A stretch of DNA of 64,000 nt from Nitrosopumilus sp. (GCA_965223425.1 OZ245003.1:1664001-1728000), one strand, 5' to 3'; shown: positions 22,836-35,383, counted from the stretch's first letter. The notes: generated from the letters alone by a model not told the origin. Translations and numbers: made by a program.

Positions 22836-22904
22836 AATGAGGGCTCAGAGGTCGTCTCACTCATCACAGAGTCAGAAGTCGTTGGTCTCATCATTGCCCT
22901 CATT
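22836..22904 (-). ncRNA. Box C/D sRNA
   Basis: Minus strand: AATGAGGGC-a-ATGATGA(C)-gaccaacgactt-CTGA(D')-ctct-GTGATGA(C')-gtgagacgacct-CTGA(D)-GCCCTCATT; 9-bp terminal stem, 12-nt guides. Confidence 0.88.
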
Positions 22905-29057: not shown

Positions 29058-29291
29058 GTTTCAAAAAAGTGAAACGCCGTTTCACTTTTCCGACGGTTTT
29101 GAATTCGGGGTACTTTTTCCTGAAAAACGGAGATAAAAAAAGGTACTCAATACAACACACATATACAATATAAACAAACAACAAAAAACATCTAAAATAC
29201 AACAACGGCAATCGATAAGGAGAAATCCCAATTAATTATTCCAAATTTTACAAAGTGCGAAAAAATCGCGAATGTTTCACTTTTTTGAAAC
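29058..29291. promoter_or_regulatory. Inverted 18-bp operator-like sites and hairpin in AT-rich divergent intergenic region
   Basis: GTTTCAAAAAAGTGAAAC (29058-29075) and its exact reverse complement (29274-29291); hairpin AAAAGTGAAAC-GCC-GTTTCACTTTT (29065-29089). Confidence 0.55.
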
Positions 29292-29443
29292 GCTTTCTGG
29301 CCAGAATTTCACAGTATGTGATCGTAAATAATTAGAAAGAAAAAGAAAACAAAAAATTCAGAGCAACCAAAAAAATCAGACACCAATCCAAAATCATTTC
29401 AAAAAAATCATTACACCAAAACAGAATCAAGATAATAAAAAGA

Positions 29444-29507
29444 AGGGCCATGATGAGACTCCATTCATTCTGACATCAATATGATGACAGAGATCAGTCT
29501 GAGCCCT
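29444..29507 (+). ncRNA. Box C/D sRNA
   Basis: AGGGC-c-ATGATGA-gactccattcatt-CTGA-catcaat-ATGATGA-cagagatcagt-CTGA-GCCCT; all four boxes canonical. Confidence 0.88.
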
Positions 29508-29590
29508 CAAATTCAATCTAACTGACTTCAATAAAAATCAGACCATACCAAACCAACCACTCATTCCAAGAAAATCAAGATAATAAAAAA

Positions 29591-29653
29591 AGGGCGGTGA
29601 TGAGTTCCATTCATTCTGTCATCATTATGATGATAAACCCCCAGTCCTGGCCC
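29591..29653 (+). ncRNA. Box C/D sRNA, degenerate paralogue
   Basis: GGGC..GTGATGA-gttccattcatt-CTGT-catcatt-ATGATGA-...-GCCC; D/D' boxes mutated; shares upstream AATCAAGATAATAAAAA with the 29444 copy. Confidence 0.6.
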
Positions 29654-29696
29654 CCATTCCCCAGCAACACATACCAATTAAAACATTCAAAAAGAA

Positions 29697-29794
29697 AAAC
29701 ATCCTGATGAGCCCTTTTGGGCCAACTCCAATCAGAACATAACTGGTTTGGATGAGCCCTACTAGGGCGAAACTGCCATTGGCAGTCGATGTTT
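29697..29794 (+). ncRNA. Type I hammerhead ribozyme (extended stem II)
   Basis: P1 AAACATC/GATGTTT; CTGATGA; P2 GCCCT...AGGGC; GAAA; P3 CTGCC-ATT-GGCAG; GTC cleavage after 29787. Confidence 0.85.
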
Positions 29795-30136
29795 CGCAAA
29801 ATACTTTCGCGAGTATCTGGTGGCGAAAAGCTGCCAACAATCAGAAAGGGCACTAAAGAGTATGCCCTAAGAATATTCCTTCGAGGGGGATATGTTCTCC
29901 GTGATGGTTCACGATTGGTATGTTTGCCCACTTGTTATTGGGATCACAAACTAGACCGGCCATACATGGAATGGTTTGAAATAAGCCGAGACGGCACTCT
30001 AACATATTACAGACTAAAGGATTCTGTAAAGGCTGTTGCCGAGTGCAAGGTTGAATCAAATTATGGGTTCATACCAAAAGCCACATACCCTCGTGTCATG
30101 AAGGCCTGTCGGGCTCCATGCAACTCTGGTTGTTAA
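29789..30136 (+). CDS. Hypothetical protein starting 1 nt after hammerhead cut
   Basis: 115-aa ORF; first 12 codons shared with the 30327 ORF. Confidence 0.55.
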   Translation: MFRKILSRVSGGEKLPTIRKGTKEYALRIFLRGGYVLRDGSRLVCLPTCYWDHKLDRPYMEWFEISRDGTLTYYRLKDSVKAVAECKVESNYGFIPKATYPRVMKACRAPCNSGC

Positions 30137-30234
30137 CTGATAATTCCTCTCACGAGGAATATCTTCCCCTTTTTATTAAACTGTAAATTTACAGCATGCC
30201 AAACCGGCATTCCAATGAAAACTTTCAAAAAGAA

Positions 30235-30332
30235 AAACATCCTGATGAGCCCTTTTGGGCCAACTCCAATCAGAACATAACTGGTTTGGATGAGCCCTGC
30301 TAGGGCGAAACTGCCATTGGCAGTCGATGTTT
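30235..30332 (+). ncRNA. Type I hammerhead ribozyme (near-identical copy)
   Basis: Same as the 29697 copy apart from a loop change; cleavage after 30325. Confidence 0.85.
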
Positions 30333-30560
30333 CGCAAAATACTTTCGCGAGTATCTGGTGGCAAAAAGCCACAAACCAAAGAGTGTCCAGATAACATTGT
30401 CTGCATGGAAGACGAAAGAATCGGATACATCGAACGTGACGGTTCGCGGTTGGAACGTTATCCATGGAGATGTCAGCAGGAAGACTACGATAAAGGTTAT
30501 CCAGAACTGAAATGGGCCAACCTCCGGTTAGACAAAGCAGCTTGCAGAGAAGCAAGTTGA
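30327..30560 (+). CDS. Hypothetical protein starting 1 nt after hammerhead cut
   Basis: 77 aa; shares MFRKILSRVSGG and 'RDGSRL' with the 29789 protein. Confidence 0.5.
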   Translation: MFRKILSRVSGGKKPQTKECPDNIVCMEDERIGYIERDGSRLERYPWRCQQEDYDKGYPELKWANLRLDKAACREAS

Positions 30561-31134
30561 CTCAGAGTCTTCATACGTCTTTGGTTACTAACTGATAATT
30601 CCTCTCATGAGGAATATCTTCCCCTTTTTTATTAAACAGAAACTAATTTTACAGCATGCCAAACCGGCATCCATAAATCATTCTTGAAAATATAACATCA
30701 AATCAAACACGGCAATCGCACAGAGACATGCAGATGAGCTTTTTTATTATCATAATTTTATCAATTCAACATCATATTGGGCCAGTGTCCCAATTTACAA
30801 AGGCAAATTTCAGAAAATTTCACGCCATTGCTTCCTTATTATGATGAGCAAGAAAAAAACACCCTATTATCCGCGCATCAAGCGAGAATTTGAGCCCGAC
30901 CCGGAAGACAAGGAAATCTGGTAGGCGCTCATGCCCCTTTTTTTCTATAACATCCATTTGATTGTTTTATCATTATGTACATGCGTTCCGGCATGTCTTT
31001 ATGAAATTGTAATGATGACTGGCACGGGGCGTATGGAATCGCCTGAGTTTCGGACTGTGATGAAACAGTTTGAGCAAAGTCCACACGAGTGCCCACATTC
31101 AATTCATGAAACAGCGAAAGCTTGACCAAGAAAA

Positions 31135-31186
31135 CCATGCCGATGTGCTCTACTTGAGCGAAACAGCCCTTTGTGGCAGTCCATGG
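31135..31186 (+). ncRNA. Type I hammerhead ribozyme, variant core
   Basis: CCATG-CCGATGT-GCTC tactt GAGC-GAAA-CAGCC ctttgt GGCAG-TC-CATGG; core deviates (U4C, A9U); cut after 31181. Confidence 0.65.
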
Positions 31187-31596
31187 AAAGAACCATGACA
31201 AAGAAAGTCAAATTTCTTAAAAGGAGACTTGCCTGTTCCTTGCGTATAGAAAACATCTCTTATCGACTGATGTTTGATTGCGGTCCAATAGGAAGACCAT
31301 ATTCTGCAATCGTTTATCAGCTGATGTTTGATTGCGGTCCAATAGGAAGACCATATTCTATAATCGTGAGTCTAGTCAACAAGCTTCTCAGAAAAGAAAG
31401 ACTCTATCCTAACGACTACGACAGTCCGGATTTTCCTGCATGCTGCAGAAAAACGATTGTTGGGTTGGAAAATACCAGTAGTATTAAGGGCAGCGCATTT
31501 CCTCACAGATGCAAGACCTGCAATAGGGAGTGGCAATACTACTTTGGATATGTGTTGCATAGTAGCCTATTTGGAGAACAGCCAATATGGGACTGA
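31183..31596 (+). CDS. Cys-rich hypothetical protein with internal duplication
   Basis: In-frame ATG at 31183; LMFDCGPIGRPYS x2; CC...CxxC. Confidence 0.5.
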   Translation: MERTMTKKVKFLKRRLACSLRIENISYRLMFDCGPIGRPYSAIVYQLMFDCGPIGRPYSIIVSLVNKLLRKERLYPNDYDSPDFPACCRKTIVGLENTSSIKGSAFPHRCKTCNREWQYYFGYVLHSSLFGEQPIWD

Positions 31597-31728
31597 CCCC
31601 CACTCTTTTTTTCTAATCATATTTTCTTAATTTTAGACACACAACACCTGCAAATAATCAACACATACTTTTTGATTATTTCATTAATGCGGCAAGGCAT
31701 CACCTCTTGCTGTTTTGTAATTCCAACG

Positions 31729-31790
31729 GGGGCCATGATGAGACAGAACAGTTCCGACTCTGTGATGAGTGAGACGACATCCGAGTCCTC
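31729..31790 (+). ncRNA. Box C/D sRNA (paralogue of 22836..22904)
   Basis: ATGATGA-gacagaacagtt-CCGA-ctct-GTGATGA-gtgagacgacat-CCGA; terminal stem. Confidence 0.75.
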
Positions 31791-31867
31791 ATTGTCAGTA
31801 ACTGTATCATTGATTTTAACCTTGGTGCCACTCTGTACAGTCTTGCACCGCTTTGAAAAAATCCAAC

Positions 31868-31981
31868 GGGGGCGATGATGAATAAAATTATGGCCCAATC
31901 TCATGATGAGACACAACAGTTCCACTCCTGGAATCCACCTCCTCCTAGAAGGTTCTGTGACAGGCCGCTATCTGAGCCCCC
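31868..31981 (+). ncRNA. Extended/atypical box C/D-like sRNA
   Basis: GGGGGC stem, ATGATGA, second ATGATGA, long insert, terminal CTGA-GCCCCC. Confidence 0.55.
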
Positions 31982-32000
31982 ATCAATCATACAAATTAGA

Positions 32001-32053
32001 GTCATGCTGATGTGCTCCCAATGAGCGAAACTGCCATTATGGCAGTCCATGGC
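32001..32053 (+). ncRNA. Type I hammerhead ribozyme
   Basis: GTCATG-CTGATGT-GCTC ccaat GAGC-GAAA-CTGCC attat GGCAG-TC-CATGGC; cut after 32047; ATG at 32049. Confidence 0.8.
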
Positions 32054-32714
32054 AAAACAAATTCTCAAACAGATTGCAAAAGCAATCGCAATAACCGTGA
32101 TTGTAGTGATTACGGCATCCATTGTGTGGACATTTGTTGTTCCGATGCTGCCACTGAGCCAAGTGTCAGATATTGTAGAAGAGAATGTGAAAGAGCCGTT
32201 AGAGAAACTTGTTTCACAAACACCGCTTGCACCAGATGAGCAAGTCACAAATGGAACGCCAAAGAACAATGACGCCCCATCGTCATACGATGACATTGAC
32301 GACCCGCCATCGGACATAGTTACCTCATATGATCCACCAGACATGGATTTTCTGAACAGTGGCACTGTAACCAAAGTCATTGACGGCGACACGATTGATA
32401 TCGACAACATGCGATTCAGACTTGCTCTGATAGACACTCCTGAGAGAGGCGAGGCCGGATACAATGAGGCAAGGATGTTCCTGTTGAAGAACTGTCCCGT
32501 ACAGTCGTTGGCACTGTATGATATCGACGACAAACAGAAGACGGACAAGTACGGACGATACATAGGAAAGGTATGGTGTTATGGATATCCACCTGTCGTT
32601 CCTGAAAATTCCATGAACAGCAAACTTGTAAACGAGGGACATGCAGTGGTTGTCTCAACGTTTTGCAGGTCAAGCGAATATGGAAATGAGCAGTGGTTAG
32701 ACCCACACTGCTAG
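32049..32714 (+). CDS. Membrane-anchored thermonuclease (SNase family)
   Basis: 'VTKVIDGDTI', 'RLALIDTPE', 'DKYGR', 'NSKLVNEGHA'; N-terminal TM. Confidence 0.88.
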   Translation: MAKQILKQIAKAIAITVIVVITASIVWTFVVPMLPLSQVSDIVEENVKEPLEKLVSQTPLAPDEQVTNGTPKNNDAPSSYDDIDDPPSDIVTSYDPPDMDFLNSGTVTKVIDGDTIDIDNMRFRLALIDTPERGEAGYNEARMFLLKNCPVQSLALYDIDDKQKTDKYGRYIGKVWCYGYPPVVPENSMNSKLVNEGHAVVVSTFCRSSEYGNEQWLDPHC

Positions 32715-32868
32715 TATTGTTCTCTTTCACATACCATCCCCCCCCTTTTTTTCTAATCAAATTTTTTGTACGGACATCTGATTATTTTTTCGTGACCTGG
32801 CATGTCATCCCAAATCTTGCACCAGTATGTTCAAACATACCTGACAGGCAGGCAAGTGTGGGGATGAT

Positions 32869-32954
32869 GGTGAGTTTACCTAGCAAGGTAAGGTGTCCGA
32901 CTGATAATCGGAATGTCTGTCAGGACAGCGTGGGTTCGAATCCCACACTCACCG
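32869..32954 (+). tRNA. tRNA with GAU (Ile) anticodon on a class II, Ser-like body
   Basis: Acceptor GGTGAGT/ACTCACC + G73; D ACCT/AGGT; AC TCCGA-CTGATAA-TCGGA; long V-arm TGTCT/GGACA; T GTGGG-TTCGAAT-CCCAC. Confidence 0.88.
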
Positions 32955-33009
32955 TAATACTCCTGCATATTAAAACATTCAGGAGAGAAATTCAAAAAAG
33001 TGAACAAAA

Positions 33010-33393
33010 ATGGGAATGTATGATGAGGTCGTAGCGGCCATAACATGTCCCTGCTGCAAGAGAAGGTATCTGGATTATGGAATCCAAACAAAGAACTTTC
33101 GGTGCGTACTCTCCAAAATATTTGAAAATGACGACACGAGGAATATTGTGGAGGAAAGGAAATCGTTTGGAAACATAAGGAACGAGACGTTCAAATGTTT
33201 TACATTCTGTGTAATGTGTTCTGCGGGAATCAATATGACAGGAGTCATATCAGAATATGTGTTTCGTGGAGTCAAGGCGGACTCGTTTAATGAGAATATA
33301 AAAAGGTCCGGAACAGATGGAATTGCAATTGATCCCTCCATCATGACAGAAAATGGAAACCATGCAGCAGAAAACGGACTGCTAAAACCCTGA
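33010..33393 (+). CDS. Zinc-finger hypothetical protein (MGMYD...CPCC...QTK family)
   Basis: Two CxxC-type pairs; duplicated at 34146..34529. Confidence 0.65.
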   Translation: MGMYDEVVAAITCPCCKRRYLDYGIQTKNFRCVLSKIFENDDTRNIVEERKSFGNIRNETFKCFTFCVMCSAGINMTGVISEYVFRGVKADSFNENIKRSGTDGIAIDPSIMTENGNHAAENGLLKP

Positions 33394-33673
33394 TTATTTT
33401 TTCGTGACCTGGCATGTCATCCCAAATCTTGCACCAGTATGTTCAAACATACCTGACAGGCAGGCAAGTGTGGGGATGATGGTGAGTTTACCTAGCAAGG
33501 CCGGAACAGATGGAATTGCAATTGATCCCTCCATCATGACAGAAAATGGAAACCATGCAGCAGAAAACGGACTGCTAAAACCCTGATTATTTTTTCGTGA
33601 CCTGGCATGTCATCCCAAATCTTGCACCAGTATGTTCAAACATACCTGACAGGCAGGCAAGTGTGGGGATGAT

Positions 33674-33828
33674 GGTGAGTTTACCTAGCAAGGTGTCGCC
33701 CCGATGAGACGATTGCTTCTGAATTAACATCGCTGGTTCAAATCCCGCACTAACCTCCATTAGTTGTTTCGTTCAGTGTGCGAGCGTCTTAGAAGTGGAC
33801 ATCGTGGGTTCAAATCCCACACTCACCG
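33674..33828 (+). pseudogene. Degenerate GAU tRNA followed by a second tRNA 3' half
   Basis: Shortened D arm, mismatched stems, ends ACTAACC-TCCA at 33759; then a second T-arm + ACTCACCG ending 33828. Confidence 0.6.
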
Positions 33829-34002
33829 TTACAACCCTCAATATTAGACCATTAATGAGGTAAATTCAAAAGTGAAAACCATGCAGCAGAAAACGGACTG
33901 CTAAAACCCTGATTATTTTTTCGTGACCTGGCATGTCATCCCAAATCTTGCACCAGTATGTTCAAACATACCTGACAGGCAGGCAAGTGTGGGGATGATA
34001 AT

Positions 34003-34090
34003 GGTGAGTTTATCTAGTAAGGTAAGATGTCGCCCTGATGAGGCGATTGCTTCTGACGGAGCATCGTGGGTTCAAATCCCACACTCACCG
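34003..34090 (+). tRNA. Second intact GAU-anticodon, long-variable-arm tRNA
   Basis: D ATCT/AGAT; AC TCGCC-CTGATGA-GGCGA; V-arm TGCTTC/GGAGCA; G73; compensatory changes relative to the 32869 copy. Confidence 0.88.
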
Positions 34091-34145
34091 TAATACTCCT
34101 GCATATTAAAACATTCAGGAGAGAAATTCAAAAAAGTGAACAAAA

Positions 34146-34529
34146 ATGGGAATGTATGATGAGGTCGTAGCGACCATAACATGTCCCTGCTGCAAGAGAA
34201 GGTATCTGGATTATGGAATCCAAACAAAGAACTTTCGGTGCGTACTCTCCAAAATATTTGAAAATGACGACACGAGGAATATTGTGGAGGAGAGGAAATC
34301 GTTTGGAAACATAAGGAACGAGACGTTCAAATGTTTTACATTCTGTGTAATGTGTTCTGCGGGAATCAATATGACAGGAGTCATATCAGAATATGTGTTT
34401 CGTGGAGTCAAGGCGGACTCGTTTAATGAGAATATAAAAAGGCCCGGAACAGATGGAATTGCAATTGATCCCTCCATCATGACAGAAAATGGAAACCATG
34501 CAGCAGAAAACGGACTGCTAAAACCCTGA
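34146..34529 (+). CDS. Duplicate of 33010..33393
   Basis: Differs at 2 residues. Confidence 0.65.
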   Translation: MGMYDEVVATITCPCCKRRYLDYGIQTKNFRCVLSKIFENDDTRNIVEERKSFGNIRNETFKCFTFCVMCSAGINMTGVISEYVFRGVKADSFNENIKRPGTDGIAIDPSIMTENGNHAAENGLLKP

Positions 34530-34645
34530 TTATTTTTTTGTGACCTGGCAATCCTTCCAAACCCGCATCAGATGAGCAATCATCCTGACAGGCAGACGGG
34601 TGTGGGAATGGCGCGGTGTTTGAGACATCAAAGGTAAAACATACA

Positions 34646-34975
34646 ATGAATGCAAAAGGAGCCATAACACATCTGGTAAAAAGGCCGATGGGAGTCGTCT
34701 TTACAGGAATGCTGATTTTTGGGCTGTTCCTGATGATTGGAGGTGACTCGGGCGTACCGGAAATACTGAGAATATGGCCAGTCTACGGAGTGTTTATTAT
34801 TCCTGCCATAGTAGGAATAACTATGCTGCTACTTACTGCTGATGAGGTATCCAAGATACACGGACGTTTTGACTCAGTAGAGTCAAAGCTGGACAAGCTG
34901 GACAATATAGAGTCAAAGCTGGACAGCATAGAGTCAATTCTGAAAGAGATAGCGGGATATCTAAAACCAAAGTAG
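34646..34975 (+). CDS. Two-TM membrane protein with coiled-coil tail
   Basis: Likely ATG 34646; duplicated at 38259..38609 with variable heptad number. Confidence 0.6.
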   Translation: MNAKGAITHLVKRPMGVVFTGMLIFGLFLMIGGDSGVPEILRIWPVYGVFIIPAIVGITMLLLTADEVSKIHGRFDSVESKLDKLDNIESKLDSIESILKEIAGYLKPK

Positions 34976-35383
34976 CACACGGCAGTTCTCACACATTCAT
35001 TTTTTATCTGACCTGGCAATCCTTCCAAACCCCGTATCAGATGAGCAATCATCCTGACAGGCAGACGGGTGTGGGAAAGGCATCAGACATTTGCGATGTC
35101 CTAGATCAAAAATGAAAAACTATGAAGAAAATTTTGAAGAATGGTGTGCAGAATATGAAAACACAATGCACAGCAATGGTTCTGAAATTATGACCCGTAC
35201 GGACGGCGACATCGGAATCAAATACGTTGTCAGGAAAGACACCGACGGATGTGGCGCATACCTCATCTGGGAGTAATTACAACCTGAAAACACCAACTAT
35301 TTTTTCGTGACCTGGCATGTCATCCCAAATCTTGCACCAGTATGTTCAAACATACCTGACAGGCAGGCAAGTGTGGGGATGAT

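Follow-up and report, generated by a model that had tools for sequence, protein, structure and literature searches.

A 64,000-nucleotide stretch of a Nitrosopumilus sp. genome (G000:C1:1664001-1728000, hereafter the window; the genome comprises 2.64 Mb in two contigs) contains four hammerhead motifs of type I, here termed HH1 to HH4. In all four an ATG begins exactly 1 nt past position 17, and the start codon of the open reading frame (ORF) that follows therefore lies inside the 3' strand of stem I. On comparative grounds, the conclusion that these start-codon hammerheads constitute a genuine hammerhead family is well founded, and so is the fixed position of the family at start codons. Two of the four units also carry elements of the box C/D small RNA (sRNA) type ahead of the hammerhead. 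We consider it an even matter whether the best explanation of the arrangement as a whole is correct, namely that a transcript spanning the C/D genes, the hammerhead and the ORF cuts itself to give a near-leaderless messenger RNA (mRNA).

An earlier, sequence-only reading had recognized the arrangement twice, as a pair of box C/D sRNAs followed by a hammerhead and a protein gene. All eight features that it listed were recovered in place, with a cut predicted 1 nt before the ATG for both of its hammerheads, at 29697 and 32001, ahead of the ORFs at 29789 and 32049. The design is a conserved module rather than a coincidence, and it had been undercounted, with HH2 and the ORF at 30327 as well as HH3 and the ORF at 31183 missed.

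Hammerheads at start codons

The four motifs of the window are:

29697-29794, + strand: HH1, with C3 at 29704, C17 at 29787, predicted cut 29787/29788 and ATG at 29789
30235-30332, + strand: HH2, near-identical to HH1, with C17 at 30325, predicted cut 30325/30326 and ATG at 30327
31135-31187, + strand: HH3, hammerhead-like with core changes, with C17 at 31181 and ATG at 31183
32001-32053, + strand: HH4, with C17 at 32047, predicted cut 32047/32048 and ATG at 32049

The elements of each motif follow in the order stem I 5' strand, CUGAUGA-type core, stem II hairpin, GAAA, stem III hairpin, GUC and stem I 3' strand, which is the type-I topology, and the predicted cleavage contexts are GUC/G AUG at ORF 29789 and GUC/C AUG at ORF 32049. 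Folds and a descriptor scan gave three helices around the core with stem I open, in the case of HH3 with one mismatch in stem III. HH1 has a stem I of 7 bp, an extended stem II of 56 nt and a stem III of 6 bp, and HH1 and HH2 both contain the canonical core of type I (CUGAUGA ... GAAA ... GUC). This core is altered in HH4, which has U at core position 9 (32013), and in HH3, which has C at position 4 and U at position 9 along with the stem III mismatch.

The pattern common to all four motifs occurred four times in the window as compared to 0.04 expected occurrences, and none of 100 shuffles reached four. A full type-I descriptor (canonical core, stem I of at least 5 bp, stem II of at least 3 bp, stem III of at least 4 bp) identified HH1 and HH2 only on both strands of the 2.64-Mb genome and nothing in 10 shuffled genomes; when any base was permitted at position 9, only HH4 was added. 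The minimum-energy fold was the hammerhead three-way junction for HH1 (z -5.1) and HH2 (z -4.3), which are contained in the two copies, 95% identical, of a 169-nt repeat, while the z-scores were weaker for HH4 (-2.2) and HH3 (-0.9). Judged from these sequences, HH1 and HH2 are likely to be active ribozymes, and HH4 and, in particular, HH3 may have lost part or all of their activity. The HH4 sequence was also present in contigs of sequencing runs X1 and X2.

Stem II of HH1 and HH2 (29712-29768 in HH1) holds a second GAUGAG-CCC...GGG copy, which suggests that the ribozyme has been partially duplicated internally. The sequence can fold as a single long stem II or as two hairpins, each local, and might act as a switch.

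The comparative evidence comes from an alignment of 20 hammerheads from eight genomes and three genera. Since the alignment was fitted to the model, it favours structure; standard pairs accounted for 97.2% of 284 cells as compared to 69.4% after shuffling, and none of 500 shuffles reached the observed value. The share of paired cells fell to 21-42% when the partners were slid. Compensatory changes on both sides were found at 10 of the 16 pairs and in all three stems, including four of the six stem I pairs, and the pairs A15.1-U16.1 and G10.1-C11.1 were kept in all 20 copies, as was the cut 1-2 nt before the start codon. Because of the slid controls and the independent, pattern-based detection of the copies, we take the covariation signal to be real despite the fitted alignment. 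One copy, at L182:113, has U at position 12. Against the Rfam model Hammerhead_1, the copy at L182:1796-1844 in genome G290 scored 35.4 bits (gathering score 34), and two others scored 33.8 and 28.2 bits.

The relatives were found with sequence patterns. Of 400 genomes from the order scanned with a core pattern blind to the ATG, 36 yielded matches, 42 in all. Nine of the matches, in seven genomes, were judged from the matched strings to be well-paired hammerheads and were the ones fetched. Five of these nine sit 1-2 nt before an ATG (one in G036, one in G290 and three in G430), another lies 6 nt before a GTG (G231), and the remaining three (G369, G247, G473) either have a start codon 27-30 nt downstream or lack an ORF nearby. 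A second pattern, which required N-ATG after the site, gave 12 matches in seven of 121 family genomes of at least 99% completeness and none in a backwards control, while a version with two N before the ATG recovered the three G430 sites and one chance match from the 400 genomes. Further copies were obtained from the flanks of these loci. In total, seven other genomes of the family contain start-codon hammerheads with a predicted cut 1-2 nt before the start, and since the relative loci have the nuclease, an ArdC-like gene and several other genes in common with the window, they are assigned to the same element family.

Homologs of the thermonuclease encoded downstream of HH4 are preceded by a hammerhead with its predicted cut 1 nt ahead of the ATG in seven copies from five genomes (one each in G036, G169 and G433, two in G151, which are truncated, and two in G172). 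The hammerheads before the nuclease in all five genomes have A at position 9 and a canonical core, and HH4 is therefore their orthologue with a derived core change. The nuclease gene in G009 has no hammerhead; a conserved upstream element of about 70 nt is found in its place.

The hammerheads of G369 (L178), G247 (L179) and G473 (L180) constitute a second class in ammonia oxidizers, with stem I AUCCC/GGGAG. In G369 and G247, a ribosome-binding-site-like GGAGGUGA follows the hammerhead, and the ATG of a secreted-looking protein is located 27-30 nt past the cut; in G473, no ORF of at least 40 codons was found to start within 90 nt. In G036 (L177 1700-2000), a transposase-like frame stops abruptly where stem I of the hammerhead starts, which indicates a rearrangement breakpoint at the 5' edge of the hammerhead-nuclease unit.

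Other searches yielded little. DNA similarity searches did not find related hammerhead sequences, and the covariance models R1 and R2 returned only the four window copies from the own genome. A scan with R1 of 150 genomes each from the genus and the order gave weak chance matches only, and these negatives are unreliable because the same model assigns 35-43 bits to the G036, G151, G169 and G172 loci when applied to them directly; these four genomes were either undrawn or lost at the first-look filter. A loose pattern matched at least 119 stretches in genome contigs, with no convincing R1 hammerhead match among the 80 loci listed, and a pattern with strict stem III gave 15 chance matches in metagenome contigs and none in viral contigs. 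Neither the nuclease nor ORF1 gave a hit in protein-based locus searches of viral contigs. Hammerhead_1 matched at two further sites of the genome (22.7 bits), which were rejected; they are identical copies of one repeat and are not hammerhead-like on reading.

Box C/D genes and the single-transcript question

The C/D elements of the window are:

29445-29506, + strand: CD1, canonical, with C box AUGAUGA, D' box CUGA, C' box AUGAUGA, D box CUGA and end stem GGGC/GCCC
29592-29654, + strand: CD2, a degenerate C/D paralogue with D' CUGU and D CUGG
31007-31077, + strand: a C/D-like degenerate element upstream of HH3, 18.2 bits, far under the gathering score
31728-31790, + strand: CD3, C/D-like, with CCGA at both D positions
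31869-31979, + strand: CD4, a 111-nt composite C/D-like element

The sequence-only reading had counted four box C/D sRNAs, from which a guide-RNA cluster would be released. Among the unit elements, only CD1 has the boxes, guides of about 12 nt and terminal stem of an archaeal box C/D sRNA. The boxes depart from the consensus in CD2, CD3 and CD4, which are degenerate or composite paralogues of host sRNAs, and since three of the four guide RNAs are degenerate, a functional cluster is a weak proposition for the window. The best Rfam match of CD1 scored 27.8 bits (gathering score 42), and its family includes a chromosomal copy and homologs in G007 and G009. The boxes of this family are conserved and its guides variable, as is also seen when CD1 and CD2 are aligned with the chromosomal copy and the G007 and G009 homologs. 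CD2 has an identical D' guide in common with a chromosomal sRNA (G000:C1:1832561), and CD3 is paralogous to a canonical sRNA at 22841-22899(-). In CD4, the C box, the D box and the end stem are good, the 5' half of CD3 is present as an inserted copy, and proper internal boxes at the usual spacing are lacking. Within the degenerate element upstream of HH3, positions 31028-31063 align with a contig of run X1, the unaligned flanks of which bear C-box- and D-box-like ends.

The gene at 22841-22899(-) is a perfect box C/D sRNA gene with a TATA-like box and T5 run of its own. It is flanked by the inverted repeats GAATCAAA ... TTTGATTC, and the chromosomal C/D genes have the same flanks. Guides that target the own hammerhead or mRNA, for example by a C17 methylation that blocks cleavage, were considered and rejected, as the complementarity was not above that of shuffles.

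One to four C/D genes are located 40-60 nt upstream of the hammerhead in five relative genomes:

G290: tandem cassettes of oligo-T, about 70-nt element, C/D sRNA, about 45-nt spacer, hammerhead, small ORF and oligo-T
G430: C/D gene upstream in three of five hammerheads, with a second C/D gene (a pair) at two of the three
G151: two C/D genes, then a hammerhead-nuclease unit
G169: one C/D gene, then a hammerhead-nuclease unit
G172: four C/D genes in a row, then a hammerhead-nuclease unit

In G290, a C/D gene is present upstream of four of five hammerheads, and the C/D-linked small ORFs have 39-93 codons. The sRNAs upstream of the hammerhead in G151, G169 and G172 belong to the CD1 family. The synteny in relatives that the sequence-only reading had proposed as a check is thus borne out; the order of C/D gene or genes, hammerhead and ATG is a conserved module, and it stands before ORFs that are unrelated to one another. 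The anatomy of the units, the conservation of the hammerhead fold, its position at the start codon and the C/D linkage in relatives are direct observations.

The protein genes and putative boundaries of the units in the window are:

29325-29330, + strand: TAAATA, TATA-like word, candidate promoter of unit 1, predicted start at about 29351-29358
29789-30136, + strand: ORF1, 115 amino acids, cysteine-rich, start codon in the stem I 3' strand of HH1
30170-30189, + strand: T5 run after a hairpin, then TATA-like TTTATTAAACTGTAAATTT; end of unit 1 and candidate promoter of unit 2
30327-30560, + strand: ORF2, 77 amino acids, paralogue of ORF1
31183-31596, + strand: ORF3, 137 amino acids from the ATG 1 nt past the HH3 site
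31683-31688, + strand: ATTAAT, TATA-like word, candidate promoter of unit 4, predicted start at about 31709-31716, just before CD3
32049-32714, + strand: membrane-anchored thermonuclease (SNase) gene, Pfam PF00565, intact, 221 amino acids
32746-32752, + strand: T7 run, end of unit 4

From the first C/D element to the end of the ORF, no T-run of at least five was present in either C/D-bearing unit of the window, and the same was true over 29287-30169 and 31674-32745. Both units have a T5-T7 run after the ORF and a TATA-like word (29325, 31683) upstream of the first C/D element. A T-run of at least five was found within 45 nt downstream of five of six stand-alone C/D genes, as compared to three of 17 linked or cluster-internal ones, all three in G430. 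In the G290 cassettes, the only conserved promoter-like element sits before the C/D gene.

The promoters of the host were surveyed by 6-mer enrichment upstream of 1388 long ORFs. TATA-like 6-mers gave a sharp peak at -33..-26 from the first ATG, where TAAATA was the most enriched true TATA-like 6-mer, and no clear ribosome-binding-site signal was found in this survey. Based on this combination, the host appears to use leaderless messages widely and by default. The host signature, the absence of T-runs of at least five from the units and the scarcity of T-runs after linked C/D genes together make a leaderless product plausible, and co-transcription of the C/D genes with the hammerhead mRNA is likewise plausible from the sequences.

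Genes, repeats and the surrounding island

The thermonuclease named by the sequence-only reading was confirmed as a member of the staphylococcal nuclease family (PF00565, residues 122-207, 35.4 bits against a cut-off of 21), with homologs in G009, G036 and G430 at 35-44% identity. No Pfam match was obtained for ORF1 or ORF3. ORF1 and ORF2 share their N-terminus and a GY.xRDGSRL stretch, and ORF2 is possibly truncated, since a conserved 3' end module sits past its stop codon.

The two genes have a common 5' module of 169 nt that covers the hammerhead and 12 codons (29670-29838 and 30208-30376) and a common 3' module of 61 nt with the stop region, a hairpin and a T-run (30114-30174 and 30569-30629). 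Their middles are divergent between these conserved modules, which gives a cassette-like layout. ORF3 contains an internal 54-nt tandem duplication (31255-31362, 89% identity) that repeats 18 codons. A 27-codon ORF at 30838-30921, which starts with MMSKKK and ends with DKEIW, is conserved in G290 (L182:2397-2477). In the window, it has a TATA-like word at 30804, at leaderless distance, and its G290 homolog follows a hammerhead. The ribozyme site thus corresponds in position to a transcription start, and in the four window ORFs the ribozyme occupies the place where a leaderless promoter would be.

The host encodes an AmoA of archaeal type (392 bits) and is therefore an ammonia-oxidizing archaeon. 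Nearly all long ORFs of the window are on the + strand, and the G+C content is 36-52% per 2-kb window, mostly 43-52% and mostly above the genome value of 41%. The encoded proteins include TraG/VirB4-like ATPases, an MmeI-type restriction-modification enzyme, an actin/ParM-like protein and an ArdC-like protein, a gene content from which we infer that the window is part of an integrated conjugative element. As a part of the best explanation, the hammerhead region would represent a cassette-like, RNA-rich portion of this element, a proposal on which we are evenly divided. Contigs from four sequencing runs had the same sequence, with no informative variants. Contig C2 (123 kb) has a G+C content of 46.9%, near the island value and above the 41% of the chromosome, and contains none of the hammerheads; it may be a related extrachromosomal element.

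The element of about 70 nt, TTTTTTGTGACCTGRCAA ... CTGACAGRCAGRC.GGTGTGGGA, is present in seven copies at 32785-35331 in the window and also at L182 255-350 and 680-775 (-) and at L171 1375-1470. It is located upstream of the transfer RNA (tRNA)-Ile genes and tRNA fragments of the window, of the C/D genes in the G290 cassettes and of the G009 nuclease gene. Within the element, a spacing of about 50 nt separates two similar TGAC..GGCA boxes, and it may be a regulated promoter or a recombination site. The tRNA-Ile(GAU) genes at 32868-32955 and 34002-34091 are 88-90 nt long, including 14-16 nt inserted into the variable region that may represent an intron. At 33475, 33668 and 35378, a copy of the tRNA 5' part runs on into unrelated sequence, and these three fragments look like a series of integration junctions.

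A proposed self-cut transcript, its alternatives and its meaning

In the explanation that we put forward, a hammerhead of type I precedes each cassette gene, with the start codon in the 3' strand of stem I. Transcription would begin upstream, in two window units ahead of C/D sRNA genes that lack terminators, and would read through the sRNA gene or genes, the spacer, the ribozyme and the ORF to stop at the oligo-T after the ORF. Upon closure of stem I, the ribozyme would cut after C17. The 3' product would be a near-leaderless mRNA with a 5'-OH end and a leader of one nucleotide, a type of message that the host seems to translate by default, and the 5' product would carry the C/D sRNA or sRNAs, to be trimmed to size under protein protection. 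Expression of the cassette gene would, from the cut at the start codon, become independent of the upstream context. The steps of cleavage, co-transcription and leaderless translation are predictions from sequence.

A number of observations weigh against this explanation. HH3 and HH4 deviate at conserved core positions, and their U9 is confined to these two window copies among the 20 aligned hammerheads, the other 18 having A9; core changes usually reduce hammerhead activity strongly (PMC3088659). At Rfam gathering thresholds, the window contains two tRNAs only and no hammerhead or C/D element. The scores were 20 bits for HH1 (RAGATH-1 hammerhead, gathering score 56.3) and 18.8 bits for HH4 (HH9, gathering score 52), low values that are attributed to the 56-nt stem II in HH1 and HH2 and to the core changes in HH3 and HH4. 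The sequence-only reading had held that an independent promoter or terminator between the sRNAs and the ribozyme would speak against a common transcript. No T-run of at least five was found in the window units. In the spacers of most relatives, however, a TATA-like box (AATATA or TATTTAAT) is located 16-34 nt ahead of the core, and the G430 spacer also has a T5 run, so that a separate promoter or terminator could be present there. The C/D-hammerhead-nuclease linkage, observed in five genomes of one genus, may represent a single inherited block. Complementarity of the guides to host ribosomal RNAs (rRNAs) was overall no better than that of shuffled guides, and the best case, a match of 10/11 to position 2062 of the large-subunit rRNA by the guide common to CD2 and the chromosomal sRNA, was equalled by eight of 100 shuffles. 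A word-indexed protein search, which covered near lengths only, found no homolog of ORF1 and leaves this ORF uncertain. Finally, in Saccharolobus, a leaderless mRNA with a 5'-OH forms weaker initiation complexes than one with a 5'-triphosphate (PMC11698992). In the same paper, the triphosphate of a leaderless mRNA is reported to mimic a base at position -1, and we speculate, by analogy, that the single nucleotide left before the AUG might play this triphosphate-like role.

The spacer boxes are central to an alternative that we consider rather doubtful, in which the hammerhead is a 5'-terminal element of an mRNA transcribed from its own spacer promoter and acts as an insulator by removing the triphosphate end and a variable leader; the C/D genes would be separate, and read-through from them would simply be cut off by the ribozyme. 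The box is conserved in G151, G169, G172, G290 and G430, and weaker boxes are present before HH1 and HH4. Several hammerheads have no C/D gene upstream, namely two in G430, one in G290 and HH2, for which a TATA-like stretch is located some 50-60 nt upstream; the G036 hammerhead is directly adjoined by a truncated transposase gene. However, the starts predicted from the spacer boxes by the TATA-to-ATG spacing of the host range from some 4 nt upstream of C3 to 14 nt downstream of it, which places them at or inside the ribozyme, so that the 5' strand of stem I would be lost, and this conflicts with the covariation of four of the six stem I pairs. The distance from box to core is also variable (16-34 nt), and since the linked C/D genes mostly lack T-runs, read-through from them into the ribozyme is to be expected in any case. 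The core changes bear on another alternative, in our view unlikely, according to which only HH1 and HH2 are ribozymes in the window, while HH3 and HH4 have decayed to non-cutting sequences that serve at most as a structured leader pairing with the start codon, so that the thermonuclease unit would not process itself here. The restriction of U9 to two window copies, the additional C4 and stem III mismatch of HH3, the fold z-scores of -0.9 (HH3) and -2.2 (HH4) and the retention of A9 by the nuclease-linked orthologues in five genomes all agree with decay, yet the stems, the ATG spacing and an intact gene for a 221-amino-acid nuclease have been retained, and some natural core variants keep a low activity (PMC3088659).

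That the C/D- and hammerhead-like sequences are non-functional recombination debris of a mobile element, their order reflecting nothing but common descent, is very improbable. Degenerate copies are indeed many (CD2-CD4, HH3 and the L182:113 copy with U at position 12), and the region is rich in repeats and tRNA fragments; however, debris would not explain compensatory changes in all three stems among 20 copies, eight genomes and three genera, a cut site fixed relative to the ATG, or the unrelated ORFs that follow the module. The self-cut transcript can also be placed within a broader scheme that we offer tentatively, in which the unit is a five-part modular cassette of the about 70-nt element, C/D gene or genes, hammerhead, gene and oligo-T, with the ribozyme as a natural insulator against context. 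The C/D genes may then supply the promoter and a protein-protected 5' module, and a gene placed behind whatever upstream sequence would yield a standard near-leaderless message that has a 5'-OH end and a one-nucleotide leader. The folding of the ribozyme could be timed or gated as the C/D particle assembles on the nascent RNA, and the cassettes, with their conserved ends and variable middles, might be exchangeable units.

The arrangement is a variant of a known ribozyme type, and our literature searches did not find a description of start-codon hammerheads combined with C/D genes. Hammerheads in Thaumarchaeota or ammonia oxidizers were not found in them either, though the alignment datasets of PMC3088659 could list archaeal examples. 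The window copies share the core, the three helices and the open-stem I topology of Rfam Hammerhead_1 (RF00163, clan CL00010), but unlike members at the gathering score they fall below it. Mobile elements of bacteria are known to have hammerheads that cut polycistronic RNAs, for example the three that flank ardA in Agrobacterium tumefaciens (Perreault et al. 2011; PMC3088659). Like those studied here, these are located between genes of a single transcription unit in prophages or mobile elements and separate cistrons, but they are mostly of type II and the available part of the paper reports no fixed distance to the start codon, whereas our copies are of type I and would cut 1-2 nt before an AUG inside stem I, in an ammonia-oxidizing archaeal host and often with a C/D gene upstream. 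The closest archaeal case in the same text is a hammerhead variant of the haloviruses HF1/HF2, also on a mobile element and just upstream of the first gene of its transcript, the 5' end of which was mapped within 3 nt of the site; it is a single case with a core insertion and is located 13 nt before the start codon, as compared to 1-2 nt in our 20 copies, most of which have canonical cores.

RiboJ-type insulators are engineered hammerheads that insulate genes from their 5' context. Laboratory hammerhead constructs have been used to produce leaderless mRNAs (PMC11698992), and the logic is the same, in that a 5' hammerhead strips the upstream sequence and leaves a defined 5'-OH at the start codon. 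Those constructs are man-made, whereas the hammerheads described here are natural and conserved and would leave one nucleotide before the AUG. In archaea, a C/D sRNA may be co-transcribed with an mRNA, a tRNA or another C/D sRNA; such genes lack a promoter and terminator of their own and have a transcript in common with their neighbors (PMC6009581), as is proposed here. In the available part of that paper the known cases are free of ribozymes and the release is ascribed to cellular nucleases, whereas here a self-cleaving RNA would set the boundary.

The role of hammerheads in bacteria and archaea is largely an open question, and the present system offers three testable handles, namely a fixed cut 1-2 nt before the start codon within stem I, a host of the leaderless type and C/D partners without terminators. 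It thereby suggests a concrete and testable function, the production of leaderless mRNAs from internal positions of a transcript together with the release of guide RNAs. If correct, the explanation would establish a hammerhead family in ammonia-oxidizing archaea and a natural counterpart of the ribozyme insulators of synthetic biology, and it would show how the archaeal ribosome handles mRNAs with a 5'-OH and a leader of one nucleotide.

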